64,000 nt of DNA from Candidatus Woesearchaeota archaeon (GTDB lineage: Archaea; Nanobdellota; Nanobdellia; Pacearchaeales; GW2011-AR1), in contig CAYQOK010000001.1 in assembly GCA_964419155.1 (NCBI GenBank), forward strand, positions 3,623 through 67,622, given 5' to 3'. Positions 45,604 to 64,000 of the stretch are shown here, in pieces; the first letter of the stretch is position 1, and every line of letters starts with the position of its first letter. The notes below the pieces were generated by a model. It did no database searches and was not told the DNA's origin. It saw only the letters and a program-made list of their open reading frames with translations. A program made the position numbers and the translations under genes.

Positions 45604-48360
45604 ATGGAAGAAGAAAAAATAATTGAACAAAGAAGAAAAAATTTTATTAGTTCATTAAAGAAAAATACTTTTTTAATAACAATTATATTTTTATTAATTG
45701 CCCTAGTTCTCGGAGTTTATATTAGGAGTCTTCCTATGAAGAGTCATGGAGATAATCCTGGTTTGTGGGATATTTCCACTGATTCGTGGACCTTGGGCCC
45801 TGATTTAGATCCTTTTTTGTTTCTAAGATATGCAGAGTTAATTGTAGAACAAGGAAAAATTCCTGAGATAGATACTCTAAGATATGTTCCATTGGGATTT
45901 GAAACTTCAAGAGAAACACAGTTATTACCTTATCTTATTGCATACACTTATAAGTTTTTAAATTTGTTTATGAATCCAACTATTGCTTTTGCAGGAGTTA
46001 TTCTTCCTGTAATTATGTTTGGATTAACTGTGATTGCTTTCTTTTTATTTGTAAGAGAGTTATTTATTGATTTTGAGTTTTTTGAAAAATCAAGGAGGAA
46101 AATAATTGCAAATTCTATTTCACTAATATCTACTTTCTTAATGATTGTTGCACCATCATTTTTATCAAGAACAATTGCTGGAATTCCTGAAAAAGAATCT
46201 GTTAGTTTCTTTTTTATGTTTCTCTGTTTTTATTTATTTTTAAAAGCATGGAAATCTGAAAATAAGAAAAGATTAGTTATTTTTAGTGTTCTTGCTGGTT
46301 TATCAACTGCTGCAATGGGTCTTGTATGGGGTGGTGTTATTTATGTTTTTGTTACAATTTCAGTTTCTTTTTTAATAGGTTTTATATTAAATAAAACAAA
46401 AGAAAAAGAAATATTAGTATATGGAATTTGGTTTTTGGTTTCATTAGCAGGAATATTCTTTTTTACAGATAAATTTTCTTTAAAAGAATTTATTTCATCA
46501 CTTGATACTGGTTTAGCTTTTGTAGTATTTTTTATTTCAATAGTTCATATTATAGTATTAAAAACAAGATTATTAGAAAAAGAAAGTGTTAAGAAAAAAT
46601 TAAAACATCACATGCCTGAAAATTTTGTTTCTTTGGGTATTGCAATATTAATAGGTATTTTAGGTGTTTTGATTTTTTTTGGTCCTGGATTTTTTATTGA
46701 AAAAATAAGTGATTTAAATAGAATTTTATTTAAACCTGTTGAAGGAAGGTGGAATATTACTGTTGCGGAAAACAGACAACCTTATTTTACAGAATGGGTA
46801 GCAAATTTTGGCCCTAATATTAGAAACATTCCATTAATGTTCTGGTTGTTTTTTATTGGATCTGTAGTACTGTTTAATGATACTATTAAAAAATTAGATA
46901 AGAAAGATAAGGCTATATTGATAATACTCTATATATTATTCTTTTTTGGTTTAGTTTTTTCAAGATATTCTGAAGCAAGTTTATTAAATGGGGAAAATCT
47001 CATTAGTAAATTGTTTTATTATGGGACCTCTATATTATTTGGGGTATACTTAGCTTATTCTTATTTTAAATATTCAAAAAAGCAAGAAAATCCATTTGAA
47101 AAAATAAATTATGAAATAATCTTTTTATTTGTTTTATTTGTTTTAACTCTTTTTACAGCAAGGAGTGCTATAAGGCTTATTATGGTTCTTGGGCCAATAT
47201 CTCCTATATTTCCAAGTTATTTAATAGTTTCAAGCATATTTAAACTAAAAAACATTAAAGATGAAACAACAAGAGCTGTTGGATTATTTATTGTTGTTGT
47301 GTTATTATTTTTAATAGCATATATGTTTTTTGTTAATTTTCAAATTATTAAAGCTCAAGCCTCTGTATTTATTCCATCCTCTTATACAAATCAATGGCAA
47401 TTAGCAATGGAATGGGTTAGAGAAAATACTCAAGAAGATGATGTTTTTGCACATTGGTGGGATTATGGATACTGGATTCAATCAATGGCAAAAAGACCAA
47501 CAGTCACGGATGGGGGCAATGCAATAAGCTATTGGAATTATTTAGTTGGAAGATATGTTTTAACCGGAGATAATCAAAAACAAGCACTTGAATTTTTGCA
47601 TACCCATAATGCAGATTATATTTTAATAGATTCTAGTGATATTGGAAAATATACTGCTTTTTCAAGTATTGGAAGCAATAAAGACTATGATAGATTTTCT
47701 TGGGTTCCTATAATGGTATCTTCAAAACAAAAAAATATAGAGACCAGAAATGGAACTACAAGAATATATGAGGGCGGTTCTATTATTGATGAAGATATTT
47801 TATATGGTGAAAATGAAACTAAGATATTTTTACCGCAAGAAAGTTCTGCTATTATTGGGGTCATTATAGAGGTAGAAGAAAATAATGAAAGTATCAAACT
47901 TAAACAACCAAATGGAGTTTATTATTCTAATGGTAAGCAAGAAATTATCCCTTTAAGATATATTTACTATAATAATCAAATTTTTGATTTTAAAAAAGGA
48001 TTAAATGCAACTGCATTTGTTATCCAATTAGCTCAAAGTAATGGAAATCAATTGTTTTTAGATAATCAGGGTGCATTAATGTATTTATCTCCTAGGATGA
48101 TGAAAGGATTATTTGCTCAGTTATATTTACTAAATGATCCTTTTGATAACTTTGATGCATTTAAGTTAGTACATTCAGAAGATAGTATTTTAATTAATTC
48201 AGTAAATAAGCAAGGTGCTGATTTAAATGAATTTGTTTATTATGGTGGTGGTATTCAGGGGCCAATAAAAATATGGGAAGTTAATTATAAAGGTGATGAA
48301 GTAGTAAATCCTGATTGGCTTTTAACAACACAACCTAATTATATTGATTGGAAATTTTAA
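45604..48360 (+). CDS. aglB: Oligosaccharyltransferase AglB/STT3
   Basis: 'HWWDYGYWIQ' (WWDYG motif). 13 N-terminal TM helices plus a soluble C-terminal domain. Confidence 0.9.
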   Translation: MEEEKIIEQRRKNFISSLKKNTFLITIIFLLIALVLGVYIRSLPMKSHGDNPGLWDISTDSWTLGPDLDPFLFLRYAELIVEQGKIPEIDTLRYVPLGFETSRETQLLPYLIAYTYKFLNLFMNPTIAFAGVILPVIMFGLTVIAFFLFVRELFIDFEFFEKSRRKIIANSISLISTFLMIVAPSFLSRTIAGIPEKESVSFFFMFLCFYLFLKAWKSENKKRLVIFSVLAGLSTAAMGLVWGGVIYVFVTISVSFLIGFILNKTKEKEILVYGIWFLVSLAGIFFFTDKFSLKEFISSLDTGLAFVVFFISIVHIIVLKTRLLEKESVKKKLKHHMPENFVSLGIAILIGILGVLIFFGPGFFIEKISDLNRILFKPVEGRWNITVAENRQPYFTEWVANFGPNIRNIPLMFWLFFIGSVVLFNDTIKKLDKKDKAILIILYILFFFGLVFSRYSEASLLNGENLISKLFYYGTSILFGVYLAYSYFKYSKKQENPFEKINYEIIFLFVLFVLTLFTARSAIRLIMVLGPISPIFPSYLIVSSIFKLKNIKDETTRAVGLFIVVVLLFLIAYMFFVNFQIIKAQASVFIPSSYTNQWQLAMEWVRENTQEDDVFAHWWDYGYWIQSMAKRPTVTDGGNAISYWNYLVGRYVLTGDNQKQALEFLHTHNADYILIDSSDIGKYTAFSSIGSNKDYDRFSWVPIMVSSKQKNIETRNGTTRIYEGGSIIDEDILYGENETKIFLPQESSAIIGVIIEVEENNESIKLKQPNGVYYSNGKQEIIPLRYIYYNNQIFDFKKGLNATAFVIQLAQSNGNQLFLDNQGALMYLSPRMMKGLFAQLYLLNDPFDNFDAFKLVHSEDSILINSVNKQGADLNEFVYYGGGIQGPIKIWEVNYKGDEVVNPDWLLTTQPNYIDWKF

Positions 48361-48397
48361 ATGTAAAATTTAAAAGTATTGAATTCTAAATAAATTA

Positions 48398-49426
48398 ATG
48401 GATTATAATTTGATAATTTCATTAATCATAAGTCTTTGTTTGGTTTTAATTGTAATGCCTAGATGGATTAGAAAAACAAAAGAAATAAATTTTATCTGGA
48501 AAGATATGAATAAACCACATAATAATGATTTAGAAACAAAATGGGTTTCAGGTTCAGGGGGTATTGTGGTTTGTTTTTCTTTTATTATTGGGGTCTTATC
48601 TTATATTGCAATTAGAACTTTTTTAATTCAAACTCAGGAAAATACAATTGAAATTTTTGCATTACTAACTACTATATTAATTACCTTATTAGTTGGTTTT
48701 ATTGATGATGTTTTTGGATGGGAAAGAAAAGGATTGGCTATGAGAGTTAGAATTCTTTTAGTAATGGTTGCAGCAATCCCCTTAATGGTTATAAATGCGG
48801 GAGTTTCTTTTATTAATATTCCATTAATAGGTTTAATTGATGTTGGAATCCTTTATGCTATTTTTTTAATACCCTTAGGTGTTGTTGGTGCAGCTACCAC
48901 TTATAATTTTTTAGCTGGTTTTAATGGACTTGAAGCTGGACAAGGAATTATTATTTTAAGTTTTTTATCAATGGTAGCATATTTAACAGATTCAAGTTGG
49001 TTAGCGGTTATTGGTCTTTGTATGGTTTCGAGTTTAATTGGTTTTTATTATTTTAATAAAGTTCCAGCAAAAGTATTTCCAGGAGATGTATTAACATACT
49101 CTATTGGTGCATTAATTGCAGGAATGGCAATATTAGGAAATTTTGAAAAAATAGCTGTGTTTGTATTTATTCCTTATATTTTTGAAGTAATATTTAAGGT
49201 TAGGGGTAAATTAAAAAAACATTCTTTTGGAAAAGTTTTAGAAGATGGAAGTTTAGAAATGCCTTATGATAAAATCTATGGTTTAGAACATTTTTCAATT
49301 TATTTTTTAAAGAATTTTATAAAAAAGAAGAAAGTATATGAAAAAGATGTTGTTTATTTTATTTTTTCAATACAAATATTAATTTGTATATTTGCTGTTT
49401 TTATTTTTAAAGGGGCATTAGTTTAA
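48398..49426 (+). CDS. Polyprenyl-phosphate HexNAc-1-phosphate transferase (MraY/WecA/GPT family, AglH-like)
   Basis: 'LVGFIDDVFGW', 'NFLAGFNGLEAG' and 'VFPGDVLTYSIGALIAG' correspond to the three conserved cytoplasmic-loop motifs of the family. Confidence 0.8.
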   Translation: MDYNLIISLIISLCLVLIVMPRWIRKTKEINFIWKDMNKPHNNDLETKWVSGSGGIVVCFSFIIGVLSYIAIRTFLIQTQENTIEIFALLTTILITLLVGFIDDVFGWERKGLAMRVRILLVMVAAIPLMVINAGVSFINIPLIGLIDVGILYAIFLIPLGVVGAATTYNFLAGFNGLEAGQGIIILSFLSMVAYLTDSSWLAVIGLCMVSSLIGFYYFNKVPAKVFPGDVLTYSIGALIAGMAILGNFEKIAVFVFIPYIFEVIFKVRGKLKKHSFGKVLEDGSLEMPYDKIYGLEHFSIYFLKNFIKKKKVYEKDVVYFIFSIQILICIFAVFIFKGALV

Positions 49427-49427
49427 A

Positions 49428-50660
49428 ATGAATTATATTCAAAGATTTTTAAAAAGTGATGTTGGAAAAGGGAGCCTTATTCTTTTTATTTTAATTAATA
49501 TTTATAATGTTATTAATTATTTATTTCATTTTTCAATGGCAAGGTTACTTAGTCCAGGCAATTATGCTATAATTGCTTCTATGTCTTCTCTTATCTACAT
49601 TTACACAGCTCCTGTTGAAGCTATACAAGGAATACTTTCAAATTATTCCACTCAGTTTAGTTCTGAGCTTGGAAAAATAAAAAATCTTTGGAAAAAAAGC
49701 ACAAAAAAAGGACTAATATATTCTATTAGTATCTTTATATTACTTTTTCCATTTTGTTTTTTTTTATCTAATTACCTCAATATTCCTTTTTGGGCATTAG
49801 TTTTAACAAATTTTACATTTGTTTTAATTGTTTTAGTTTCAATTAATAGGGGAATCTTACAAGGGAAAAAGCGATTTTATGGTTTGGGTATTAGTCTTAT
49901 AACAGAATCTTTAATTAAACTTGTTTTTGCTTGTGCTCTTGTTTTAATTGGTTTTAGTTATTTTGGAGCCTTAACTGGAATTTTAATTGGATTACTTCTT
50001 GGATTTGTTTTTTCATTTTATTTTTTAAAAGATATTCTAATCTCAAAAGAAGAAGAATCAAAAACACCTAATATCAAAGAGTATAGTTTTTCATTTACCG
50101 GAGCAATGATTGTAGTTGTTTTAATGTATAGTTTAGATATTTTATTAGCAAAAAGATTTTTTTCACCTGAAATTGCTGGAAAATTTGCTGTTTTATCAAT
50201 GCTTGGGAAAATGATTTTTTTTGGAACAATTCCAATTAGTAAAGCCATGTTTCCGATTTGTTCTGAAAGATATTATAAAAAACAAAAAACAAAAACAGTA
50301 TTTATTAAATCATTTTTAGGAATAGCAACATTATGTATTTTAGCAAGTACTTGTTTTTTAATTATACCTTCTCTTATAATTAAAATATTATTTGGTAATC
50401 AGTATTTAGATGTAGCAGATTCTCTTTTTTATGTTGGTATGGCTTATTCATTTCTTGCATTATCTAATAATGTTTTGTTTTATGGGCTTTCGATTAATAA
50501 ATTTAAAAAACCTTATTATTTATCAATTTTTTTAATAATGCAAATTGTTTTGTTATATTTATTTAACTCAACCATAATGCAGTTTTCATTAGCATTAATG
50601 AGCTCAAATGCAATAATGTTTTTATGTTTACTCTTATTAATATTATTTAAAAGAAAATGA
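49428..50660 (+). CDS. Wzx/AglR-like polysaccharide flippase
   Basis: 410 aa, about 12 TM helices, no soluble domains. Located between the GPT and a Dol-P-sugar synthase. Confidence 0.5.
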   Translation: MNYIQRFLKSDVGKGSLILFILINIYNVINYLFHFSMARLLSPGNYAIIASMSSLIYIYTAPVEAIQGILSNYSTQFSSELGKIKNLWKKSTKKGLIYSISIFILLFPFCFFLSNYLNIPFWALVLTNFTFVLIVLVSINRGILQGKKRFYGLGISLITESLIKLVFACALVLIGFSYFGALTGILIGLLLGFVFSFYFLKDILISKEEESKTPNIKEYSFSFTGAMIVVVLMYSLDILLAKRFFSPEIAGKFAVLSMLGKMIFFGTIPISKAMFPICSERYYKKQKTKTVFIKSFLGIATLCILASTCFLIIPSLIIKILFGNQYLDVADSLFYVGMAYSFLALSNNVLFYGLSINKFKKPYYLSIFLIMQIVLLYLFNSTIMQFSLALMSSNAIMFLCLLLLILFKRK

Positions 50661-51457
50661 AAAAAATAGCTATAATTATTCCTGCTTATAATGAAGAAAA
50701 AAGAATTAGAAAAACACTTAATGAATATTGTAGATATTTTGAAAAAAGTAAATTTTCTAAAACAGATGTTAAGATAATTGTTGTTGCAAATAATTGTAAT
50801 GATAAAACAGTTAAAATACTTGAAGAATTAAAAAAGAAATTTGAGAACTTAGAATATCTTGATTTAGAAAAGGGTGGAAAAGGTTTTGCAATTACAGAGG
50901 GATATGTTTATGCACTAAAAAAAGATTATGATTTTATTGGTTTTGTTGATGCTGATTTAGCTACTTCTCCAAAAGAATTTAATAAATTGATAAACAGCTT
51001 AGTTCAATCTAGTTTTGATGGGGTTATAGCAGACAGATATATTAAAGGATCTAAAGTCTATCCTTCTTTTGGTTTTAGGAGAATTGTTGTTAGTAGAATT
51101 TTTAATTTTATCGTAAGAGCCTTGTTTTTATTTTCTTATAGAGATACACAATGTGGTGCAAAACTATTTAAAAAAGATGTTATTAAAAAGGTCATTAAAG
51201 AAATAACAATTAGTCAATGGGCTTATGATATTGGATTCTTATATGCTTGTAAAAAAAATGGTTTTAAAATAAGGTCTATTCCAACTGTTTGGTATGAAAT
51301 GCCTGATAGTAAATTGAATATCAGTAAAGCTTCTGTTGAAATGTTCTTTGCAGTAATTCAATTAAAAATTCTTGTATCAAGATTTAAAAGGCTATTGACC
51401 CCAATAAAACCATTGATTTCAATAATTTATAAATATCTTAAAAACAGAAATAATTAA
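50657..51457 (+). CDS. GT2 dolichyl/polyprenyl-phosphate sugar synthase (DPM1-like)
   Basis: 'IAIIIPAYNEEKRI', 'GFVDADLATSPKEF' (DxD) and 'TQCGAKLFKKDV' match the DPM1 family QCGFK block. Confidence 0.75.
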   Translation: MKKIAIIIPAYNEEKRIRKTLNEYCRYFEKSKFSKTDVKIIVVANNCNDKTVKILEELKKKFENLEYLDLEKGGKGFAITEGYVYALKKDYDFIGFVDADLATSPKEFNKLINSLVQSSFDGVIADRYIKGSKVYPSFGFRRIVVSRIFNFIVRALFLFSYRDTQCGAKLFKKDVIKKVIKEITISQWAYDIGFLYACKKNGFKIRSIPTVWYEMPDSKLNISKASVEMFFAVIQLKILVSRFKRLLTPIKPLISIIYKYLKNRNN

Positions 51458-51464
51458 AGATATA

Positions 51465-52577
51465 ATGGAAAATAAAAAAACATTTTTAATTTTAGGGAGT
51501 TTGCAGGCCCCTTTAACAGGTTCTAAGATTAGAAGTAGGTCAATTGCAAAATATTTAGCAAAAAGAGGCCATAAGGTAATTTATTTAGAACCTACTGATC
51601 CTAATTCAAAGGAAAATCTTAAAATTAAAGGGGTAAAAATAATAAAAACCAAATTTCCAAATTTGATTTTTAGTTTAGGAATGATTATTGCAAGTATTGA
51701 TAATCTTTTAAAAGTAAAAAAAGTAAAAAAAGTAGATTATGTTATTGCAACAAAACCCCTTCCTAGTTCTTGTTTAGCTGCATTAAAATTAAGAAATAAA
51801 GATACTAAAATAATTTTAGATATTGATGATTTAGAATATGCTTATTGGTTAAACAACAAACCCATTGCTTATCTTTTAAAAATATTTGAAAAATGGGTTA
51901 TAAAAAGATTTGATTATATCACAGTCCATAATAATTCATTAAGAAGATATGTTGAAAAAAGCCTTAAAATCCCATCTGAAAAAATATTATTCTTATCTCA
52001 GGGATTGGATCTAGACCATTACACTGTTAGGACTAAGAATAATTTTAAGAATAAAAACCAGATATTAATTGTTTATACTGCTTTTTTAGGTATTGCCTCA
52101 GATTTAATTCCTATATTAGAGGTATATAAAAACGCAAAAAAACAATTTAATAATATTAAACTAATTGTGGTTGGGGGCGGCCCTAAATTAAAAGAGTATA
52201 AGAGGTATTGTAAAAGAAACCACGTCCCTGTTTTATTTTTAGGTTATAAAGACCATAATGAGACTTTAAAAATTTTAAAATTTGCGGATATTACATTAAA
52301 TTATAATAAAAAAAATTTTGCAAATAAATTCAGATCCCCTATAAAATTAAGGGAATACATTCTCTTAGGTAAAGAGGTTGTAACAACAGATATAGGAGAT
52401 ACTGCATTATTTAAAAGATATATTTATATATCCAAGAATAATTTAAATGATTATCTTCTATGTCTTAAAAAGGCAATTAAAGTTAAAAAAAATATCAATG
52501 GGCCAGACTATATAAAAAAAGAGTGTGATTGGGATAAAATAATTAATAAATTTTTAAAAGATTTAAATGAAAAATAA
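51465..52577 (+). CDS. GT-B glycosyltransferase (GT4-like)
   Basis: 'LIVVGGGPKLKEYKRY' and 'LREYILLGKEVVTTDIGDTA' resemble the GT4 C-terminal half. Confidence 0.5.
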   Translation: MENKKTFLILGSLQAPLTGSKIRSRSIAKYLAKRGHKVIYLEPTDPNSKENLKIKGVKIIKTKFPNLIFSLGMIIASIDNLLKVKKVKKVDYVIATKPLPSSCLAALKLRNKDTKIILDIDDLEYAYWLNNKPIAYLLKIFEKWVIKRFDYITVHNNSLRRYVEKSLKIPSEKILFLSQGLDLDHYTVRTKNNFKNKNQILIVYTAFLGIASDLIPILEVYKNAKKQFNNIKLIVVGGGPKLKEYKRYCKRNHVPVLFLGYKDHNETLKILKFADITLNYNKKNFANKFRSPIKLREYILLGKEVVTTDIGDTALFKRYIYISKNNLNDYLLCLKKAIKVKKNINGPDYIKKECDWDKIINKFLKDLNEK

Positions 52578-54015
52578 AAAAATTTTGGTTATAAATCCTC
52601 CAAGGGTGGATCAAAGACCGGTAGTAAGAGAAGAAAGATTTGAACATAAGGATTTTGAAGTTATTTATCCCCCTTTAACTCTACTTTATTGTGCTGGACA
52701 AATAAAGAAGAACGTAAGTAATGTAGAAGTATCTTTTATTGATGCAATGGGATATAATCTTAATTTAGATCAAATAAAAGAAAAGTTTAAGATTATAAAT
52801 CCTGATATTGTTATAAGCAGGTTTGCTTTTGATACTTTTCATGAAGATCTTAGTTTTTTAGAAGAAATTAAAAAATGGAAAAAAGATATTATAGTTCTAA
52901 CTAGGAATAAAATTGTAGGAGATGTTAATGATTTAATTGAAAAATATCTCAAAAAATATCCTAAAATTGATTATTTTATCACTTCTGAACAAGATATTGT
53001 GATCCATAAAATAATAAAAGATATTTTAAATAAAAAAATTCCTGGCTCTTGCGCGTATATTAAAAAAAATAAATTATTCTTTTCAGAAAAGTATAAAGAA
53101 GATGAAAGTTTAGATGAAATGGCTTTTCCAGCATATGAATTATTACCTAAATCTCCTTGGCCTTATAAAAGTTCATTATTTCCAAAGGACTTTACATTAG
53201 TTATGAGTAGTAGAGGGTGTCCAAATCAATGTACTTTTTGTGCATATAGAAATCAAAAATGGAGGCCTAGAAGTCCTGAAAATGTAGTTGAAGAATTAAA
53301 GATGTTAAGAAAAAAATATAATATTAAAAATTTTGTTTATTTTGATGACACTATTTCTATAAATAAAGAAAGGTGTTTAAAAATTTGCGAATTAATGAAA
53401 GAAAATGGATTAACCGATATGAAATATGCTATTTGTACAAGAGTGAATGCAATTGATGTAGAGTTATTAAAAGCCTGGAAAGAAACAGGCTTAGAAGAGA
53501 TCTCATTTGGAGTAGAATCTGGATCTGAAAAAATATTAAAAATGACTCGCAAGGGTATAACTAAAAAACAAATCCTAAATGCTTTTGATTTGTGTAAGAA
53601 AATGAAAATAAAGGCCATTACATTAGTTATTTTAGGACTTCCTGGGGAAACCTTGAACACTATAAATGAAACAAAAGGGCTAATTAAAAAAATAAATCCT
53701 TTTTATTTACAATACTCTTTGTGTATTCCTTTTCCAAATACTCCTGCATATGATTATTATAAACAGAATAATCTTTTAATTCATGAGGATTATTCAAAAT
53801 ATAATCCCTTAACCCTGGATCCTGTTATGAGGACAAAAGATTTAAGTGCAGAACAATTAATAAAAGAAAAAGAAAAAGCATATAAGGAATTCATATTAAA
53901 CCCTAGATTTTTTTTAAATAAGATCTCCTTAACTGATTGGGCCTGGAATATTAGGGGATTAAAAATGTTCTTAGATAGGGTTAAAGGAATAATAAAAGAA
54001 AAGTATGTTAGATAA
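52567..54015 (+). CDS. B12-binding-domain radical SAM enzyme (class-B-like), paralog 1
   Basis: N-terminal Rossmann-like 'KILVINPP...YPPLTLLYCAG', then 'SSRGCPNQCTFCAY' (CxxxCxxC). 482 aa. Confidence 0.8.
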   Translation: MKNKKILVINPPRVDQRPVVREERFEHKDFEVIYPPLTLLYCAGQIKKNVSNVEVSFIDAMGYNLNLDQIKEKFKIINPDIVISRFAFDTFHEDLSFLEEIKKWKKDIIVLTRNKIVGDVNDLIEKYLKKYPKIDYFITSEQDIVIHKIIKDILNKKIPGSCAYIKKNKLFFSEKYKEDESLDEMAFPAYELLPKSPWPYKSSLFPKDFTLVMSSRGCPNQCTFCAYRNQKWRPRSPENVVEELKMLRKKYNIKNFVYFDDTISINKERCLKICELMKENGLTDMKYAICTRVNAIDVELLKAWKETGLEEISFGVESGSEKILKMTRKGITKKQILNAFDLCKKMKIKAITLVILGLPGETLNTINETKGLIKKINPFYLQYSLCIPFPNTPAYDYYKQNNLLIHEDYSKYNPLTLDPVMRTKDLSAEQLIKEKEKAYKEFILNPRFFLNKISLTDWAWNIRGLKMFLDRVKGIIKEKYVR

Positions 54016-55048: not shown

Positions 55049-55055
55049 AGTTAAA

Positions 55056-56513: not shown

Positions 56514-58452
56514 GAGATCAGACAAAATCATTGATAGTTTTATGGATTTATTTTATTCAAAAAACAAAACAAAACTTTGTGTTTTAATGTTAGCATTAAT
56601 TGGATTTATACTAAGGATTATCTCTGCTAGAAATATAGGAATAAGTGCAGATGATGCAGTACATGCTATTAGGCCAATTGGAATAATTGAAAGTGGTAAA
56701 ATGGTAGAATTAGGACAATCTTCGGCAATGTGGTATTATATTCAAGAAATTTTTTATAAGATATTTGGAGCTACTCAAATTGGTTCTAGATTTGCATCCG
56801 CATTGTTTGGTGCGGCGTTAATTATTTTAATTTACTTGTTTGTTAAACAAATATTTAAATCAGAAAAAATAGGTTTAATTGCATCTGCTTTGATTACATT
56901 TTCACCTTTTTTAATTAAAATGACCTTACCTGAGATGGATATTGTTGTGATGTTCTTTGTTATATTTTCAGGATTGTTTATCTTTAGATTTAATGAGTCT
57001 TACAAAAATAAAGATTTGTTTTTTGCAGGTTTTTTAATGGGAATTGCTGTTTTAATTAAGGTCTACTCATTATTTTTTGTAGGAACATACTGTATCTTTT
57101 TAATTTATAAGGGGGTTAAGAAAAAAAAGATTAATAAAAGGTTCATTAAAGGCATTTTGATTTTTGGGTTTACAATCTTTATTTTTACAGTTCCTACCTT
57201 AACTCATAATTATTTATTATACAAAGATAAAGGTTTTATGGATTTAATTTTTACAAATGTGTTTAAATTAGGTCTTGAAAAAGCAGAAGAACTTTATTCT
57301 TGGGGTGCAGGATGGATGCCTCATACAGATTATAAAGGATTTTTTTTAGGAAATCAAGTTAATTTTCAGGAAAATCCAGAAACCATATACAGACTTCCTG
57401 GATTTATTGTTCTTCTTTATTTAAGTTTTATGGAAGACCCAATTTTAATATTATTTGGATTATTAGGATTTATTTATTTGATATTAAAAAAACATGAAAA
57501 TTATCTTAGTTTTTTTATAATTACTTTTTTTGTACCTTTTATTTATCTTGGATCTCATATTCCAATGTTAAAACATTTTACATTTATCTTTGTTTTACTA
57601 GTTCCAATATCTTCTTATTTTATTTATAATCTAGGAACTGATATTATTAAAAAAAATAAAAAAATAAAATGGAAATATCTTCTTATTTTATTAATTTTAA
57701 TTAATTTATTATGGCTTGGAAAAGGAGTTGATGGATTAAATAGTCATTTTTATAGTGAAAGTGGTGAAGGTCAATTAATTAATTATAAAAATCAAGTGAT
57801 CACAGAAGATTCTTTAGTAGTAGTAGACAGTAGAATTTTCAGAGGTTTTATTGGTTGGTTATTTAATGATAGATTTTACTTAGAATCAAATTATTTTGGT
57901 GCTGCTTTAGAACAAAGTGCTCAATATGGAGATCCTGTTCCACTTGAAGTTTACTATGTTGAATGTGCAAAAGATGATTGTGGATGGGGAACAATAAAAA
58001 ATCAACCAGAGTTTAATAAAACAATGGAAGAATTAACTACTTGGTTTAGTAATAATTCAGAGTTAATAAAAGAAATAAAAGCAGTTAATAGATATGAATA
58101 TTATTTTCCTTTTATTACTTCAAATAAAGAAGAACCTATTTATAGGGTATATAGGTCTACATTAATGGTAAATCCATCTATTCTTTTAATTGCAAAATCA
58201 ACTCATAATGTTTTAATGTATCCAATTGGATATGATGAGACCATAGGCCCTGTTTTTGATGAGTATCAGGTTTATTCTGCTTTTGATGGTTTATTAGATA
58301 AAACAGCACACATTATTTTAAAAACAGGCTGGATCTTTTCTTTTATAAGTTTAGGGTTTTTGATTTATTTGTTTATTAAAGAAGATGATGAAGACATTAA
58401 AGAAATTAAAGAATCAAAAAATGAAGTTAACCATAGTAATTCCAGTTTATAA
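56494..58452 (+). CDS. GT-C fold membrane glycosyltransferase (PMT/ArnT, GT39/83-like)
   Basis: About 11 TM helices. First-loop acidic motif 'ISADDAVHAIRP'. Large soluble C-terminal domain. Confidence 0.55.
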   Translation: MEATMNKRSDKIIDSFMDLFYSKNKTKLCVLMLALIGFILRIISARNIGISADDAVHAIRPIGIIESGKMVELGQSSAMWYYIQEIFYKIFGATQIGSRFASALFGAALIILIYLFVKQIFKSEKIGLIASALITFSPFLIKMTLPEMDIVVMFFVIFSGLFIFRFNESYKNKDLFFAGFLMGIAVLIKVYSLFFVGTYCIFLIYKGVKKKKINKRFIKGILIFGFTIFIFTVPTLTHNYLLYKDKGFMDLIFTNVFKLGLEKAEELYSWGAGWMPHTDYKGFFLGNQVNFQENPETIYRLPGFIVLLYLSFMEDPILILFGLLGFIYLILKKHENYLSFFIITFFVPFIYLGSHIPMLKHFTFIFVLLVPISSYFIYNLGTDIIKKNKKIKWKYLLILLILINLLWLGKGVDGLNSHFYSESGEGQLINYKNQVITEDSLVVVDSRIFRGFIGWLFNDRFYLESNYFGAALEQSAQYGDPVPLEVYYVECAKDDCGWGTIKNQPEFNKTMEELTTWFSNNSELIKEIKAVNRYEYYFPFITSNKEEPIYRVYRSTLMVNPSILLIAKSTHNVLMYPIGYDETIGPVFDEYQVYSAFDGLLDKTAHIILKTGWIFSFISLGFLIYLFIKEDDEDIKEIKESKNEVNHSNSSL

Positions 58453-59101
58453 TGAAGAAAAAACAATTCTAGAAGTTATTCAAAGAGTTAAAGATTTAAA
58501 ATTAGGAATAGAAAAAGAGATAATTGTGGTTGATGATGGTTCTAAAGATAATAGTTATAAGCTTGCTAAAACTATGAATGGCATAATTTTGTTAAAACAT
58601 AAAAAAAATCTTGGAAAGGGCGCAGGTTTTAAAACTGCATTAAAACAATCAACGGGAGAGATTATTATAATCCAAGATGCAGATATGGAACTAGATCCTA
58701 TAGAAATATCTAAGGTTATAAAACCAATATTAGATGGAAAAAGTGAAGTAGTTTATGGATCAAGAAATCTGCATAATCCTGGAAAAGATAGAAGTCCTTT
58801 ATTTTATTTTGGAGGTTATTTTCTAACAAAAATAGTTAACTTTCTTTATGGGACTAAATTAACTGATGAACCTTGTGGGTATAAGGCATTTAAAACTAAA
58901 ACAATAAAACAAATTAAAATTAAAGCAAATCGTTTTGAATGGGAACCTGAAGTAACAGCAAAATTATCTAAAAAAAATATTAAGATCATTGAAGTTCCAG
59001 TTTCTTCAGTTTCAAGATCTATAAAAGAGGGTAAAAAATTAAGAAGAAGAGATGGAGTAATTGCCCTTTTAACTTTAATGAGATATAGATTTAAAGATTG
59101 A
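58421..59101 (+). CDS. GT2 polyprenyl-phosphate sugar synthase (DPM1/GtrB-like)
   Basis: 'LTIVIPVYNEEKTI', 'IIVVDDGSKDNS', 'IIIQDADMELDP' and 'EPCGYKAFKTK'. Start placed at the internal ATG at 58421. Confidence 0.75.
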   Translation: MKLTIVIPVYNEEKTILEVIQRVKDLKLGIEKEIIVVDDGSKDNSYKLAKTMNGIILLKHKKNLGKGAGFKTALKQSTGEIIIIQDADMELDPIEISKVIKPILDGKSEVVYGSRNLHNPGKDRSPLFYFGGYFLTKIVNFLYGTKLTDEPCGYKAFKTKTIKQIKIKANRFEWEPEVTAKLSKKNIKIIEVPVSSVSRSIKEGKKLRRRDGVIALLTLMRYRFKD

Positions 59102-59132
59102 TTTCTAGAATAATAATATTTAATAGTCTAAG

Positions 59133-60260
59133 ATGGGAGATATTACTATGAATATTTTAATTATTAATTGGAGAGATATTAAAAATAATGTTTTAGGAGG
59201 TTCTGAAATTTATTTTTATGAAATTGCTAAAAGATTTGCTGAAAATGGCCATAAAGTAACTTGGTTAACTTCTAGAAATAAAAATAAGAAAATTGAGTAT
59301 TATGAAGGTTTAAAAATTATAAGAATTGGCAATAAATGGACTACTTATTTTTTAATTCCATTAAAATATTTATTTTCATTAAAACATAATTTTGATGTTA
59401 TTGTTGATGTAGAAAATGGAATTCCTTTTTTTTCACCTTTTTATAAAAAAAATAAAAATACAAAAGTTATTTTACATATTCACCATATTCATAAAGAAGT
59501 TTGGTTTAGAGAGCTTCCATTAATACTTGCAAAAATTGGTTGGTTTTTAGAAGGAAGGATTATGTCAAAAGTTTATAAAAATTCAGGTATAATTACTTTA
59601 TCAGAAAGTTCTAAAAAAGAGATTTTAAAAAATAAAATAAAAATAAAATCAGAAGAAGTATTTGTTGTAAATCCTGGTATTAAAAAATATAAATTAAAAA
59701 ATATAAAAAAAACAAAAGAACCTAGTATTTTATTTTTAAATAGAATTAAAAAATATAAAGGGGTAAAAACTTTTTTAAGAGCAGTAAAATCATTACAGGA
59801 CCAGGATATTAAATTTAATACTTTAGTAGCAGGCACTGGAGATGATTTAAATGAAATGAAAGATTATGCAAAAAAACTTAAAATAAAAAATATTAAATTT
59901 TTAGGAAGAGTAAGTGAACAAGAAAAAATAAAGATTATGCAAGAATCCTGGGTTTTTATTAATCCTAGTATGAAAGAAGGATGGGGGATTGTAAATATAG
60001 AAGCAAATTATTGTGGAACTCCAGTTATAGGTTCAAATGTAGCAGGAATTAAAGATTCTGTTTTAGAAAATAAATCTGGTTTGCTTTTTGAATATAATAA
60101 TGTAGGTGATCTTGCTAATAAAATCAAAGAGATTATTAAGAATAAAAAGCTTAGGGATAATTTAAGTAAGGAATCAAAAAAATGGGCTAATAAATTTTCA
60201 TGGGAAAAATCTTTTAAAGATTATGAATCAGCTATAAATAAAATATTAAAAATAAATTAA
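59133..60260 (+). CDS. Glycosyltransferase family 4 (GT-B)
   Basis: 'PSMKEGWGIVNIEANYCGTPVIGSNVAGIKDSV' is the canonical GT4 E-x7-E block. Confidence 0.8.
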   Translation: MGDITMNILIINWRDIKNNVLGGSEIYFYEIAKRFAENGHKVTWLTSRNKNKKIEYYEGLKIIRIGNKWTTYFLIPLKYLFSLKHNFDVIVDVENGIPFFSPFYKKNKNTKVILHIHHIHKEVWFRELPLILAKIGWFLEGRIMSKVYKNSGIITLSESSKKEILKNKIKIKSEEVFVVNPGIKKYKLKNIKKTKEPSILFLNRIKKYKGVKTFLRAVKSLQDQDIKFNTLVAGTGDDLNEMKDYAKKLKIKNIKFLGRVSEQEKIKIMQESWVFINPSMKEGWGIVNIEANYCGTPVIGSNVAGIKDSVLENKSGLLFEYNNVGDLANKIKEIIKNKKLRDNLSKESKKWANKFSWEKSFKDYESAINKILKIN

Positions 60261-60266
60261 TGAGGC

Positions 60267-61796
60267 TTAAGAATTCTTTGCGTAGATAACTAAAGTAGGT
60301 GCATTATTTATATTAATAGCTTTTACAGGGGTATAATTAAATTCTGAAAGCCCTTGTTGAGAATAAGCCCATTCAGGATGTTTTTCAAATATAGAGATTA
60401 TAATATATTTAGGATTTAGTTCTGATATATTCTTAATTAAATCTTCTTTAGTATCTGAAAAAGCATAACTATGTCTTTCTGAATAATAAGTGTTTTGAGT
60501 TCTACTCTGTGTTAAAATAATATCTCCTGGTTTTGAATTTTGTTTAATCCATAATGCAGCATCTTTTACAGGGCCATAAGAAGAAATACTTCTTTTTATA
60601 ATATTATCTGAAGAAACTAATAGTTGATAACTTCCAGTAATTAAAATAAATATAATAAATATCATTGGAAGTTTTTTATGAATTTTTTTAAGATATTCAG
60701 AAATTTTTATAATTGAATAACTGATTATATAAAACATTGCAGGGAAAATCATAAAAATATATCTATCTTCATAGTGGCTTACTCCAAAACCAAAGTAAAG
60801 GAGAGGAATCATAATCCAAATTAAAATTAAAAATTTTGAATTTAAAAATTTGTTTTTATTTTTAAAAACAAGGTCTAATCCTAAAAATACATCTAAGAAA
60901 AATAAAATTCCTATGAAGAGAATTATTAAAAGTAAATTGTTTAAATAATATGGAAAGGAGTTTATATATTGCATAAATATACTCAATCCTGATGAAAATG
61001 TAATTCCTTCAAGAGCACCTGAACCTGCATGAATAATAGGATAAAGGGGGTGGCCTAATTTTAATTGATTCCAAATTAAATATGGGCTTACAATAATTAA
61101 TGAGATTATTCCAGATATCCAATAATCTTTATTTTTTAGAGCATTTAATCTTTCAGTAGATAATATATAAAGAATTAATATAACAAAAAATAAAAAAGTC
61201 GGAAATCTAATTAAGGTCCCTATTGCAATTAGTGGAAAAACAAGCCATGTTGCTTTTTGTTTTTTTAATAAAAACAAATAATAAGCTGATAATCCAAGAG
61301 TTATGTGCAAAACATCGACCATAATTCTCATTGAGTAAAAAAGATTAACATAAACAATGGAGTAAAAAAAAGAAGATAAAAGAGCAATATTTTTATTAAA
61401 TAATTTTTCGCCAACTAAATAAACTAAAAATACTGTAAAAACAGAGATTAAAATTAAAAAAAATCTAATAGATAGTTCTCCCATACCAATAAAATAAAAG
61501 AAAGATAATAAAATGGAAAATAAAATTGGTCTTCCTTCCCAAAAACCTGTTTCAGGTGTGTTTAATGCAATATTTTTTGCTTTTAATAAATACTCTGCCT
61601 CATCCCACCAAACAGCCTGATCTTTTGTTAAAGAAAAATAATAAACACGAACAAGGAAAGAAAATAGCAAAATTAGTATCAAGAATACCAATGGTTTATT
61701 TTTAAAAAAATTAATTATATTTTTTTTAGTTTCTTTTTTCTTTTTTTCAAGTTCTTTTGAATCTTCTAAAGCATTTTCTTTTAGATCTTCACCCAT
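60267..61796 (-). CDS. GT-C fold membrane glycosyltransferase (ArnT/PMT-like)
   Basis: More than 10 TM helices. First-loop 'VWWDEAEYLLKAK' resembles the ArnT/PMT DE motif. Short soluble C-terminus. Confidence 0.5.
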   Translation of the reverse strand: MGEDLKENALEDSKELEKKKKETKKNIINFFKNKPLVFLILILLFSFLVRVYYFSLTKDQAVWWDEAEYLLKAKNIALNTPETGFWEGRPILFSILLSFFYFIGMGELSIRFFLILISVFTVFLVYLVGEKLFNKNIALLSSFFYSIVYVNLFYSMRIMVDVLHITLGLSAYYLFLLKKQKATWLVFPLIAIGTLIRFPTFLFFVILILYILSTERLNALKNKDYWISGIISLIIVSPYLIWNQLKLGHPLYPIIHAGSGALEGITFSSGLSIFMQYINSFPYYLNNLLLIILFIGILFFLDVFLGLDLVFKNKNKFLNSKFLILIWIMIPLLYFGFGVSHYEDRYIFMIFPAMFYIISYSIIKISEYLKKIHKKLPMIFIIFILITGSYQLLVSSDNIIKRSISSYGPVKDAALWIKQNSKPGDIILTQSRTQNTYYSERHSYAFSDTKEDLIKNISELNPKYIIISIFEKHPEWAYSQQGLSEFNYTPVKAININNAPTLVIYAKNS

Positions 61797-61885
61797 AAAT
61801 TAATTATATAATTAAGGTTTTTAATGTTTTGTGCTTGATAGATTATAAAGAAAAGGATTAAAAAGAAAGTTTATTAATAAAGAAG

Positions 61886-62613
61886 ATGAAAAAGCATCTT
61901 TATAACTCAAAATTATCAAAGTTTAAATGGTTTGTTAAAAGGTTTGGTTTAAAAGAGGTTTTTAAAAAACCGATAAGAGTATTGTTTTCAAAACAGATTA
62001 TAAAAAGGAAGAAAGATTCTTATTTTTTCTTAAATAATAAAAAATATGCTCTTTTTTATAATGAATATAATACAACATGGGATAATGAACGATGTGTTGA
62101 AGTTCCAGTTATTAATAATATAATAAATGAATTTTTAAAAAATAAAAATAAAAAGATTCTTGAAATAGGTAATGTGTTATCTAATTACTTTAAAAAACAA
62201 TGGGATATATTAGACAAATATGAAAAAGGATTTGGGGTAATTAACAAAGATATTCTTAATTTTAATCCTAATGTTAAATATGATTTAATTGTTTCTATTT
62301 CAACATTAGAGCATATTGGATTTGATGATTTTCCATTTGATTCGGGAGAAAAGATTTTAAAATCTATTGAGTATATAAGAAAATCCCTATTAAATAGGGG
62401 GGGTTGTTTGTGTTTACGATTCCAATTAACTATAACCCCTACTTAGATAAATTAATATCTAATAAGAAAATAAAGATGACGAAAACCTATTTTTTAAAAA
62501 GAATTAAAAAAGACATTTGGAAGCAGGTTGATTTAAATGAAGAATTAAAAAGTAAATATGGAAAGCCATTTGCTTATGATAATTGTGTGATGATAGGAGA
62601 AATTGAAAATTAA
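61886..62613 (+). pseudogene. Class I SAM-dependent methyltransferase split by a frameshift at a 7-G homopolymer
   Basis: Frame 1 has 'ILEIGNVLSNY' and 'YDLIVSISTLEHIGFDD' and stops 16 codons after the G7 at 62397-62403. The +1 frame continues 'GGLFVFTIPINYNPY...', which is the expected post-motif-III sequence. One extra G would fuse both frames into about 242 aa. Confidence 0.6.
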
Positions 62614-62614
62614 T

Positions 62615-63529
62615 CTAATGTTTTGTGCTTTTTACCCTTAACCAAGTTTTATTAAAACTTCTTTTCCAAAGTCTTTTATCAAAAATAACTCTAAACCAAA
62701 TGTAAAATCTCAGGATAATTAAAAGAAAAAACCAAAAAATTCTTTTAAAGGATTTTAAATTTAAAAGAGATTTAATGCCCACTGATATTTCCTCAAATAA
62801 TGAACTAGTTTTAGAAAATTTAAAATAATTATTTAATTGATAATATCTAGCAGCTGTTCTTTTTTTTTGTTTAATCCAATCCACAAGATTATCTGGATAT
62901 AATACAAAAACTTTTGCACGAGGTTCATAAATTGTCTTGTGAGACTTTTTGTTTAGCATTAAAGATATAAATGCATCATCTGCTAATGCGTCCTCTGGAA
63001 TTTTTTTAATAATATTTGATTTTATTGCATAAAGATAACCTGAACAGATAATATTTTTATTTAATCTTGTTTGTTTTAATCTTAGTTTATGAAATCCATT
63101 TGTTAATAAAAATGCCCAAAAACCAAACATTTTTTTTAAGTCATTAGTTGAAACAACTCTTGCGCTAACACCTCCTAAATCTATTTTATTTTCTTTAAAG
63201 TGTTTTATTAAATATTTTAGAGAAATATTAGAAACATAAACATCTCCGTCTGTTAAGATTAATAAATCTCCTTTTGCTTTTGAGAATCCTATATTTAATG
63301 CAGTTGGCTTACCTTTTCCAGGATCTTTAATAGATCTTATTCTTGGATTTTTCCTTGAAAAATCTTTTACAACTTCAAGTGTTTCTTTATCTGGTGCAAG
63401 AACAATTATTTCATAATCTATTTTATTTTTTTTATAATTTTTTAATAAATCTTGTTTTAAAAAAGAATTTATAGATCTTGAAATTAAATGAGATTCTTTA
63501 AAAGAAGTTATTATTATTGAGATCTTCAT
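62615..63529 (-). CDS. GT2 glycosyltransferase with C-terminal TM
   Basis: 'MKISIIITSFKESHLI', 'EIIVLAPDKETLE' and 'LILTDGDVYV' (DxD). C-terminal hydrophobic 'IFWFFLLIILRFYIWF'. Confidence 0.7.
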   Translation of the reverse strand: MKISIIITSFKESHLISRSINSFLKQDLLKNYKKNKIDYEIIVLAPDKETLEVVKDFSRKNPRIRSIKDPGKGKPTALNIGFSKAKGDLLILTDGDVYVSNISLKYLIKHFKENKIDLGGVSARVVSTNDLKKMFGFWAFLLTNGFHKLRLKQTRLNKNIICSGYLYAIKSNIIKKIPEDALADDAFISLMLNKKSHKTIYEPRAKVFVLYPDNLVDWIKQKKRTAARYYQLNNYFKFSKTSSLFEEISVGIKSLLNLKSFKRIFWFFLLIILRFYIWFRVIFDKRLWKRSFNKTWLRVKSTKH

Positions 63530-63549
63530 GGGGTTATTTGTTTTAATTT

Positions 63550-64000
63550 TTAATTGAAAAATCTAATTATTTCTTCTAAAACTTCATTAGAAGATATGCT
63601 TTTAACAAGATTTTCATTGTACTGGTCCATTTTTTCAGGAAAAAATTCATTAAGTTTTGGAGAAATTTTTTTAGATAATAAGTTGTAACCCTCAATTTCA
63701 TGAGGACTTGTACAAAAAAATAATCCAACAACTCTTTTTTTTAATGCTAAAGCAACATGTAAACAAAAACTATCTCCGCAAACAACTCCATCACAAATAT
63801 TAACTAAAGAAATAAATTCTCTTATTGTATTATTTGGGTTGTTTTGAATAACATTGATCCCTATATCTTTAAGTTCTTTTGTTATTAAATCTTGTTCTTT
63901 AACTTCATTAGTTCCACCAAATAAGATAATAGAATAACCTAATTCTTGTGATTTTTTAATAAAATCTTTAACATTATCTTTATGCCATTTTTTAGAAGGC
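63550..64000 (-). CDS. GT9 (ADP-heptose:LPS heptosyltransferase-like) glycosyltransferase, 5' end outside window
   Basis: Hand translation of the minus strand gives '...LVNICDGVVCGDSFCLHVALALKKRVVGLFFCTSPHE...'. This matches the GT9 C-terminal nDSGpmHlAaAlg...T.P block. Confidence 0.55.
   Translation of the reverse strand, partial: PSKKWHKDNVKDFIKKSQELGYSIILFGGTNEVKEQDLITKELKDIGINVIQNNPNNTIREFISLVNICDGVVCGDSFCLHVALALKKRVVGLFFCTSPHEIEGYNLLSKKISPKLNEFFPEKMDQYNENLVKSISSNEVLEEIIRFFN

Follow-up and report, generated by a model that had tools for sequence, protein, structure and literature searches.

The 64,000-nucleotide (nt) stretch of contig CAYQOK010000001.1 analysed here (the window), from an archaeon labelled Candidatus Woesearchaeota, ends in a dense cluster of genes for surface glycosylation. 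The open reading frame (ORF) listing and the Pfam and NCBIfam scans placed 15 consecutive genes in the 18.4 kb at positions 45604-64000, which bears out the surface-glycosylation island of roughly 18 kb that an earlier note on this DNA had described. The genes comprise AglB, a priming transferase, a flippase, four family 2 glycosyltransferases (GT2), two family 4 glycosyltransferases (GT4), two GT-C membrane glycosyltransferases, two radical S-adenosylmethionine (radical-SAM, rSAM) enzymes, a frameshifted gene and a partial family 9 glycosyltransferase (GT9). The 11 plus-strand genes from AglB to GT4b are separated by gaps of -68 to +37 nt, an operon-like packing. The region is made up of three parts. 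The conserved left block consists of a SpoIIM-like gene, AglB, an N-acetylhexosamine (HexNAc)-1-phosphate transferase, a MOP-family flippase and a short GT2; the variable central cassette of a GT4, a radical-SAM gene, a GT2, an HpnJ-like B12-binding radical-SAM gene, a GT-C, a short GT2 and a GT4; and the conserved right block of a GT-C, a methyltransferase-like gene of 242 amino acids (aa), a GT2 and GT9, after which, past the window end, comes a gene resembling nucleoside 2-deoxyribosyltransferase (NDT-like). The features are as follows, with transmembrane segments abbreviated as TM:

44490-45350, plus strand: SpoIIM-like membrane protein, conserved left-flank neighbour of AglB (PF01944, E 3.8e-15)
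45604-48360, plus strand: AglB/STT3 oligosaccharyltransferase, 918 aa (PF02516, PF21436, TIGR04154)
48398-49426, plus strand: polyprenyl-phosphate HexNAc-1-phosphate transferase of the AglH/WecA/MraY superfamily (GPT; PF00953, 110 bits)
49428-50660, plus strand: MOP-family flippase, Wzx/AglR-like, Polysacc_synt (PF13440, 56.6 bits; at least 9 TM segments)
50657-51457, plus strand: short GT2 (GT2a), candidate dolichyl-phosphate-sugar synthase, which ends the conserved left block (PF00535, 82.8 bits)
51465-52577, plus strand: GT4 of the GT-B type (GT4a), which opens the variable central cassette (PF13439, PF00534)
52567-54015, plus strand: radical-SAM enzyme with B12-rSAM-type architecture (rSAM1; PF04055, 97 bits)
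54005-55048, plus strand: GT2 with C-terminal membrane segments (GT2m1), partner of rSAM2 (PF00535, 120.8 bits)
55056-56513, plus strand: HpnJ-like B12-binding radical-SAM enzyme (rSAM2; PF02310, PF04055, TIGR03471)
56494-58452, plus strand: GT-C (PMT_2) membrane glycosyltransferase (GTC1; PF13231, 74 bits; PF02366; about 13 TM segments)
58385-59101, plus strand: short soluble GT2, AglJ/DPM1/ArnC-like (GT2b; PF00535, 112 bits)
59133-60260, plus strand: GT4 (GT4b), which closes the variable cassette (PF00534, 146.6 bits)
60260-60400, no strand: recombination breakpoint between cassette and right block, at the convergent GT4b/GTC2 junction (identity drop against contigs L091 and L092)
60267-61796, minus strand: GT-C (PMT_2) membrane glycosyltransferase (GTC2), conserved partner of GT9 (PF13231, 60.5 bits)
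61886-62607, plus strand: methyltransferase-like gene, 242 aa, frameshifted; called ORF 61886-62446 (no Pfam or NCBIfam family)
62615-63529, minus strand: GT2 with a C-terminal TM segment (GT2m2), directly downstream of GT9 (PF00535, 68.6 bits; PF13641)
63553-64000, minus strand: GT9, heptosyltransferase family, C-terminal 149 aa, cut by the window end (PF01075; stop codon 63550-63552)

AglB is predicted to be an STT3-type oligosaccharyltransferase by its domain scores (PF02516, 62.1 bits against a gathering threshold of 24.5; PF21436, 29.4 against 23) and its motif set (WWDYG at residue 618, DLD at 67 and DIGK at 679), in a protein with about 13 TM segments; it scored 84.6 bits against the archaeosortase-associated STT3 model, for which the cut-off is 450. 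AglB, the AglH-like GPT, the flippase, two short and two membrane GT2 genes and two GT-C genes had all been named in the earlier note and were present by the family scans. GT2a gave weak NCBIfam matches to PgfS, AglJ and PpgS, and GT2b scored 116.5 bits against the AglJ model TIGR04182 (cut-off 325); GT2b is a candidate lipid-phosphate-sugar synthase supplying GTC1. The components listed in the note add up to 16, against a stated total of 15, and 15 genes were found. Its three GT4-like enzymes were reduced to two GT4 genes of the GT-B type within the island. An additional GT4 lies outside it at 27761-28900, 17 kb upstream and beside the ribosomal protein operon, and may be the third gene that was counted.

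We consider it likely that this region is the resident AglB-dependent N-glycosylation supercluster of a Pacearchaeota/Woesearchaeota-type DPANN archaeon. A profile scan with the GT9 fragment over one GTDB genome per species gave 92 relatives, for which 80 loci (L001-L080) were fetched with neighbours inside a flank limit of 10 kb, and the island proteins were compared with these loci by tblastn. The GT9 relatives in the fetched loci were 44-60% identical and nearly all labelled as DPANN archaea. Such relatives are present in at least 92 species genomes of Pacearchaeota, Woesearchaeota and Nanoarchaeota, and the AglB-GPT-flippase-GT2 group is often found within 10 kb of them. GT9 itself was matched in 80/80 loci, a GT2m2-type GT2 in 71 and a GTC2-like GT-C in 61, usually beside or close to GT9; the GT2a-like gene was matched in 40 loci (43-53% identity where inside an AglB-side block), the flippase in 24, the GPT priming transferase in 20 (49-66% identity, some partial at locus ends) and AglB in 15 (37-57% identity, some matches being partial-length), with the counts of GT2- and GT-C-type genes including paralogues at other positions. 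The matches to the left block (AglB, GPT, flippase and the 43-53% identical GT2a) retain the order and orientation seen in the window. Homologues of the SpoIIM-like protein, 55-66% identical, adjoin AglB or the priming transferase in L026, L046 and L065 (AglB was undetected in L026), and true GT2m2 orthologues (48-58% identity) stand directly after GT9 in L022, L023, L027, L053, L057, L061 and L066.

A further locus from an NCBI assembly, L081, was colinear with the window from AglB to GT9, with tblastn amino-acid identities of 30-72% (GT4a 48%, rSAM1 72%, GT2m1 55% and GTC1 51%; GTC1 was also 54% identical in L027). The L081 island differs by one extra radical-SAM gene, two methyltransferases and one sugar kinase, and tblastn found no match in it for the frameshifted 242-aa gene or for the GT2 at 62615-63529. 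The kinase (L081:15244-16128) is a 294-aa protein of the GHMP type lying inside the island, with 72 bits to a fucokinase model and 49 to that of HddA, a heptose-7-phosphate kinase; the window is without one. Among 135 ORFs of seven related loci, Pfam counted 23 GT2, 11 radical-SAM, 10 GT4, 10 epimerase/dehydratase, 8 methyltransferase, 8 GT9 and 8 PMT_2 genes, and an island make-up of this kind is the norm in relatives. The nearest relatives of the island genes were found in metagenome-assembled genomes (MAGs) carrying the labels Nanoarchaeota, Pacearchaeota or Woesearchaeota. Outside the island the window is also archaeal, with a ribosomal protein operon containing SecY, an L10P protein with the archaeal insert, CDC48 and FtsZ.

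The cluster extends past the window end, where the 99.2% identical contig L093, from another sample, carries the N-terminus of GT9 and the NDT-like gene. Genes of this nucleoside 2-deoxyribosyltransferase-like family (PF05014) were seen near GT9 in 73/81 loci, usually upstream and divergent, often with QueC coming after them; examples are L093:1-123, past the window end, and L081:20359-20778.

The composition of the island is native and not that of a foreign insert. GC at third codon positions (GC3) was 0.138 in the island and 0.144 elsewhere in the window, and overall GC was approximately 26% throughout, ranging from 0.23 to 0.29. The distance in relative synonymous codon usage (RSCU) from the pooled non-island, non-ribosomal genes of the window was 0.69±0.18 for those island genes with a length of 700 nt or more and 0.65±0.15 for comparable native genes. 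The 4-mer correlation was 0.979-0.982 for island chunks and 0.962-0.990 for the rest of the window. The GT9 fragment had a GC3 of 0.107 and an RSCU distance inside the range of short native genes. No tRNA or integrase was found at the island borders, the sole tRNA of the window by tRNA scan being at 10767-10847; the repeat scan gave no meaningful repeats flanking the island, and the Pfam scans detected no integrase or transposase domain among its genes. The comparisons of composition and synteny that the earlier note had proposed thus found an island uniform with the rest of the window on GC3, RSCU and 4-mers, and components that essentially all have archaeal orthologues in conserved order, in L081 and across the 80 loci. 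Given this uniform composition and conserved order, a recent bacterial acquisition is not supported. Two fetched loci bear bacterial labels, L051 ('bacterium') and L068 ('Candidatus Paceibacterota bacterium'); both have the DPANN-type order GT2-NDT-GT9-GT-C, with GC of 0.30 and 0.26, respectively, and were rejected as bacterial GT9 loci, as they are probably mislabelled archaeal MAGs.

Demonstrable horizontal exchange in the island lies in the central cassette and not in GT9. Compared with two independent metagenome contigs, L091 and L092, the window showed 99-100% nucleotide identity over 60400-62118, and this dropped within approximately 150 nt to 70-81% over 59400-60400. To the left of about 58400 there was no homology to either contig, and L091 has a class I methyltransferase gene there. 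At the amino-acid level, the L091 proteins were 98% identical for GTC2, 68% for GT4b and 51% for GT2b. No orthologue of GT4a, rSAM1 or rSAM2 was found by tblastn in the 80 species loci. The flanks are conserved in dozens of species; the centre differs among near-identical strains. From this abrupt loss of identity between near-identical strains, the centre of the island, approximately 51.4-60.3 kb, behaves as a replaceable cassette between conserved flanks. Bacterial O-antigen and capsule loci are alike in having conserved flanks around a strain-replaced centre.

A second strain-level difference concerns the 242-aa gene of the right block. The called ORF (61886-62446, 186 aa) is the front of a conserved 242-aa gene whose frame shifts at a run of seven G (62397-62403), and a tblastn alignment with the L027 orthologue carries on in another frame past this run. 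Nowhere else in the window does a run of G or C exceed 5 nt. Contig L093 has a single indel difference, a run of eight G, and an intact 242-aa ORF. There are two candidate explanations: an error in the assembly, or slipped-strand switching that turns a glycan-modification gene on and off. The chances that it is a homopolymer assembly error and that the gene is intact in vivo appear evenly balanced to us. Homopolymer miscounts are a common sequencing artefact, and the sole indel relative to L093, at 99.2% identity, is a G within a run of 8 nt; however, the only G/C run of such length in 64 kb of 26%-GC DNA sits inside a surface-glycan gene, the classic setting of phase variation, and the gene call of the NCBI record itself is the truncated 186-aa product. 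If the difference is real, the phase-variable tracts of Campylobacter, Haemophilus and Neisseria are alike in having a poly-G run in a glycan-modification gene, a one-G difference and a frame switch, whereas here the host is archaeal and only one tract and two alleles were seen.

The earlier note had called this gene a methyltransferase. The ORF gave no Pfam or NCBIfam match, and pairwise BLAST to the neighbouring methyltransferases was not significant, but a methyltransferase-like fold is suggested by an hhalign probability of 91.5% to the class I methyltransferase core over 52 columns, in which the glycine-rich SAM loop was not evident, and by the presence of PF13489 (Methyltransf_23) in some homologues of 42-48% identity. 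A total of 733 homologues were found at E<=0.001, in Nanoarchaeota and Pacearchaeota and also in Verrucomicrobia.

The GT9-like gene that the earlier note placed at the window end was confirmed by a PF01075 score of 59.5 bits (cut-off 22) for the 149-aa fragment, and its quoted motif, VVCGDSFCLHVALALKKRVVGLFFCTSPHE, was found exactly. The fragment includes the nucleotide-sugar motif GDSFCLH. The full-length L081 orthologue scored 79.1 bits, and the complete protein in L093 is 344 aa long, with the N-terminal motif LGALGDVVRTLP lying beyond the window end. GT9 aligned to the solved GT9 structure 3TOV over residues 2-282 and more weakly to WaaF (1PSW) and WaaC. It resembles WaaC, WaaF and WaaQ (CAZy family GT9) in PF01075, in the N-terminal GD motif and in the C-terminal D(S/T)xxxH motif. 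A search of 1.84 billion cluster representatives with the GT9 profile gave 1905 matches at E<=1e-3, of which no more than 20 reached E<=1e-30. Nanoarchaeota still made up the clusters as low as about 109 bits, and everything else scored 95 bits or less; clusters below about 95 bits mix Nanoarchaeota paralogues with bacteria, including Oligoflexia and Omnitrophota, as seen at about 80 bits. A word-index search with GT9 returned six matches. A high-scoring clade of Nanoarchaeota followed by a drop in score places GT9, by these profile scores, in a compact DPANN-wide clade.

The description of GT9 as bacterial in type held up, in that related archaeal loci adjoin or fuse it with GmhA, HldE/HldC and GmhB, as in the ADP-heptose pathway of bacterial lipopolysaccharide (LPS), GmhA-HldE-GmhB. 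In the full-length relative P0130, GT9 is fused to a C-terminal rfaE_dom_II domain (182.1 bits against a cut-off of 181.5). This domain is a D-glycero-β-D-manno-heptose-1-phosphate adenylyltransferase, and it was at or above cut-off in P0130, L029 (198.3 bits) and L028 (HldE domain II, 186.7). A bifunctional HldE stands directly after GT9 in L031 and L028 and near it in L049, and HldE in the archaeal loci scored 426-460 bits against the enterobacterial model (460 in L028). GmhA was present in L064 and L049, and GmhB in L031, with scores close to the equivalog cut-offs. By tblastn near GT9 in 81 loci, HldC was found in 17, the HldA kinase in 13, GmhB in 7 and GmhA in 3; at least one ADP-heptose pathway gene was present in 23/81 loci, and three or more in 5/81. 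A NUDIX domain was fused to GT9 in 7 loci and adjacent in 5 more (12 in total). Because GT9 is fused or adjacent to HldC/HldE, GmhA and GmhB in relatives, ADP-heptose is, on this gene linkage, the most likely donor for this GT9 clade. The fusions seen across related loci were GT9-NUDIX, GT9-HldC, RpiB-HldC and HldC with a GSU2086-family protein (L013:9455-10846, L031:9446-10837, P0130, L035:10329-11207 and L064:12408-13949), and each of them points to a coupling of GT9 with ADP-heptose metabolism. Compared with bacterial LPS, the archaea are without lipid A or a 3-deoxy-D-manno-octulosonic acid (Kdo) acceptor, GT9 stands beside a GT-C gene in an AglB cluster, and NUDIX fusions are frequent. 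Our literature search returned nothing relevant on GT9 or heptosyltransferases in DPANN or on LPS-like genes in Pacearchaeota or Woesearchaeota.

This linkage raises the possibility that the GT9/heptose module entered the ancestor of Pacearchaeales and Woesearchaeales from Bacteria long ago and was then inherited vertically, for which we put the chances slightly short of even. The archaeal loci carry HldE of the bacterial type at the scores given above, with GmhA and GmhB near their equivalog cut-offs, and a GT9 clade that is compact and DPANN-specific belongs to a wider family that is bacterial. Such an origin is fully compatible with a resident N-glycosylation cluster. On the other side, functional nucleoside diphosphate (NDP)-heptose enzymes have been reported in archaea, bacteria, viruses and eukaryotes, with their archaeal use left open (Tang et al. 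2024, via PMC11461863), which makes an archaeal origin possible, and the nearest outgroup clusters, at about 80 bits, mix Nanoarchaeota paralogues with bacteria.

Of the two B12-dependent radical-SAM enzymes proposed in the earlier note, both are radical-SAM proteins with a CxxxCxxC motif, but the B12-binding domain PF02310 was detected solely in rSAM2. rSAM1 carries CPNQCTFC at residue 218 and aligned over its full length to the HpnJ (167 bits) and BchE (153 bits) models; PF02310 was not detected in it by Pfam, and its link to B12 is through these model alignments. rSAM2 has PF02310 (50 bits against 32.1), PF04055 and CVGRCAFC at residue 206, and is thus predicted, from its core and B12-binding domains, to belong to the cobalamin-dependent (class B) radical-SAM enzymes. 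Its best solved relative was AprD4, a sugar-modifying radical-SAM enzyme.

About 15 relatives of rSAM2 were 64-98% identical and more than 100 others approximately 50% identical, those named among the latter being from Sedimentisphaerales, Woesebacteria, Nitrospirota, Elusimicrobia, Thermodesulfobacteriota, Bacteroidota and Altiarchaeota. The rSAM2 homologue lay in a glycan cluster in every context examined (L082-L090 among them). A GT2m1 homologue (37-42% identity) was in the same cluster in 6/7 of the non-DPANN lineages examined, and these rSAM2+GT2 clusters, which were examined in Elusimicrobia, Woesebacteria, Sedimentisphaerales, Thermodesulfobacteriota, Nitrospirae and Altiarchaeota, usually also hold a short GT2 (with or without DUF2304), a GT-C, further radical-SAM genes and a GT4. 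A crude neighbour-joining tree rooted on paralogues placed 16 DPANN-like rSAM2 sequences as sister to 104 sequences from bacteria and Altiarchaeota. The sharing of rSAM2 and its GT2 partner with many bacterial phyla is the second place, next to the strain-level cassette, where horizontal exchange shows, and on this tree transfer may have run either way. The rSAM2/GT2m1 family appears to be uncharacterised so far.

Among known systems, the closest in chemistry are HpnI/HpnK/HpnJ of the bacteriohopanetetrol cyclitol ether pathway and the archaeal calditol synthase Cds. rSAM2 aligns end to end with HpnJ and has a membrane GT2 partner as HpnJ has in HpnI, whereas the hosts make no hopanoids, there is no HpnK-type deacetylase, and the reaction could be a C-methylation. 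GT2m1 was considered as an HpnI-like protein and rejected, with no match to the HpnI model. Most B12 radical-SAM enzymes C-methylate their substrates. HpnJ and Cds contract lipid-linked sugars (PMC13459092).

The GT-C genes matched generic PMT_2/PMT Pfam families and, weakly, the NCBIfam models LA_3751, Agl23 and Pmt; no ArnT model was matched by either gene at E 1e-3 or better in Pfam or NCBIfam. Pairing of a GT2 lipid-phosphate-sugar synthase with an external GT-C is a universal mechanism (for example, AglD/AglS and ArnC/ArnT). The earlier note's use of ArnT-like enzymes as a hallmark of LPS pathways was therefore overstated, and the generic PMT_2 matches and the universal GT2/GT-C pairing leave the GT-C genes as no evidence of LPS origin. 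The GT2 at 58385-59101 adjoins the PMT_2 gene at 56494-58452, as in GacI/GacJ/GacL of Streptococcus pyogenes, ArnC/ArnT, GtrB/GtrC and PpgS/Rv3779, and bacterial relatives of the rSAM2 module carry GT2, DUF2304 and GT-C genes in the manner of the GacJ family. Unlike GacI/GacJ/GacL, the window has no DUF2304 gene, the GT-C/GT2 pair is immediately preceded by a B12 radical-SAM gene, and the carrier is presumably dolichyl rather than undecaprenyl phosphate. For GacI/GacJ/GacL, the GT2 and GT-C mechanism has been demonstrated by experiment (bioRxiv 10.1101/180810).

From these gene families we infer the following order of reactions. The PF00953 enzyme would prime dolichyl phosphate with HexNAc-1-phosphate, and the cytoplasmic GT4, GT2 and GT9 enzymes would lengthen the lipid-linked glycan, with GT9 probably adding heptose from ADP-heptose. 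The two radical-SAM enzymes may modify a sugar that is lipid-linked or still nascent, either C-methylating it or rearranging its ring. The MOP flippase would move the glycan outward, and AglB is predicted to transfer it to asparagine residues of surface proteins. In parallel, the short GT2 enzymes would make dolichyl-phosphate-monosaccharides, and the GT-C enzymes would transfer sugars from these carriers to the glycan or to proteins on the outer side of the membrane, as AglD/AglS, GacI/GacL and ArnC/ArnT do.

The nearest archaeal system for comparison is the agl cluster of Haloferax volcanii (AglB, AglJ/G/I/E, AglD, AglR and AglS), which is alike in clustering AglB with GT2 genes and a MOP-type flippase, together with GT4 genes, a dolichyl-phosphate-sugar synthase and an external sugar-adding GT-C. 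The window cluster adds GT9, two B12-type radical-SAM genes and two GT-C genes, and its priming would be by a PF00953 phosphotransferase and not by hexosylation of dolichyl phosphate of the AglJ type. The Haloferax agl clusters vary between strains (PMC11407970).

It is unlikely, in our estimate, though worth weighing, that the GT2 and GT-C pairs, GT9 and the radical-SAM enzymes build a separate product and that AglB, GPT and the flippase are merely alongside. Candidates for such a product are a protein O-glycan, a glycolipid or lipoglycan, or a polysaccharide anchoring the surface layer. The PMT_2 family includes protein O-mannosyltransferases, the rSAM2 and GT2 module is found in bacterial clusters of the cell-wall or exopolysaccharide type that are without an oligosaccharyltransferase, and lipid-linked sugars are the substrates of HpnJ and Cds, which are the closest named relatives in chemistry (PMC13459092). 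However, the genes from AglB through GT4b are packed in an operon-like manner on one strand, and AglB recurs within 10 kb or less of GT9 in many species. The families also fit N-glycosylation, given that Haloferax uses a dolichyl-phosphate-sugar synthase and GT-C pair, AglD/AglS, to add the last sugar of its N-glycan.

The interpretation of the region as an AglB-dependent N-glycosylation cluster has points that weigh against it. The GT9 fragment fell under the NCBIfam heptosyltransferase equivalog cut-offs, with 45.7 bits against 134.6 for heptosyltransferase II, 30.2 against 185.3 for I and 18.3 against 170.2 for III, and the fused full-length relative P0130, at about 64 bits, was also below every one of them. 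No heptose-pathway gene was found within the 64-kb window, and the seven loci with the window-type arrangement of GT9 followed by GT2m2 have no adjacent HldC. rSAM2 scored 304 bits over its full length against the HpnJ model TIGR03471 (cut-off 577.6; BchE next at 122); below that cut-off, in a glycan-cluster context and with no hpn genes, it is not HpnJ proper, and its sequence does not distinguish methylation from rearrangement. Some genes could serve another glycoconjugate, such as protein O-glycans or glycolipids. To our knowledge, there is no glycan structure or enzyme assay for any DPANN archaeon and no characterised DPANN glycan pathway, and the sugar identities given here are guesses.

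A resident AglB-dependent cluster remains the reading we favour. It can be extended, much more speculatively, to one in which DPANN archaea build a heptose-containing, radical-SAM-tailored AglB glycan, with GT9 fed by GmhA-HldE-GmhB and the coat varied by cassette replacement and a poly-G switch. In the same joint proposal, the HpnJ-like rSAM/GT2 pair, common to the candidate phyla radiation (CPR) and other bacteria, would make a C-modified or carbocyclic lipid-carried sugar. We regard this combination as doubtful. If true, it would give archaea an equivalent of the variation known from bacterial LPS core and O-antigen, with a bearing on how episymbionts attach to their hosts, and it would explain the archaeal use of NDP-heptoses.

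Least probable by far is the reading of the earlier note, that the LPS pathway of a neighbouring bacterium was the recent source of GT9 and perhaps of the GT-C genes: GT9 is an overwhelmingly bacterial family whose best solved relatives (3TOV, WaaF 1PSW and WaaC) are bacterial, the next-best clusters outside the DPANN clade include Oligoflexia and Omnitrophota, and the heptose pathway that accompanies GT9 in relatives belongs to the bacterial HldE type, but this is set against the native composition of GT9, its DPANN-wide relatives with the same GT-C and GT2 neighbours, the compact Nanoarchaeota clade in the profile search, a right-hand block that is unchanged among 99-100% identical strains, and GT-C genes that match generic PMT_2 and not ArnT.

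The cluster is thus typical of its lineage and not a one-off import, and genome scans should not take 'bacterial-type' families in a DPANN glycan cluster as evidence of recent transfer. Its points of interest are the GT9-heptose link, the cross-domain radical-SAM/GT2 module and the strain-level variation of the cassette and G-tract. The linkage of GT9 and the ADP-heptose pathway to AglB in relatives offers a concrete candidate use for the archaeal NDP-heptose enzymes. The variable centre, the cross-domain module and the possible poly-G switch suggest an O-antigen-like diversification of the surface. The prevailing view is that DPANN archaea live in attachment to other cells, and with such a lifestyle surface glycans are likely to be central to host recognition.

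Elsewhere in the window, two large probable surface proteins were noted. The first (28-2343, 771 aa) has Big_9/cadherin-like repeats, and the second (11148-15011, 1287 aa) has an N-terminal GDSL lipase/acylhydrolase domain; it is plausible that they are glycosylation substrates or host-interaction factors. An AMP-phosphorylase-like gene (Glycos_transf_3 and PYNP_C domains) was present at 24301-25773, AMP phosphorylase being part of an archaeal nucleotide-salvage pathway common in DPANN.

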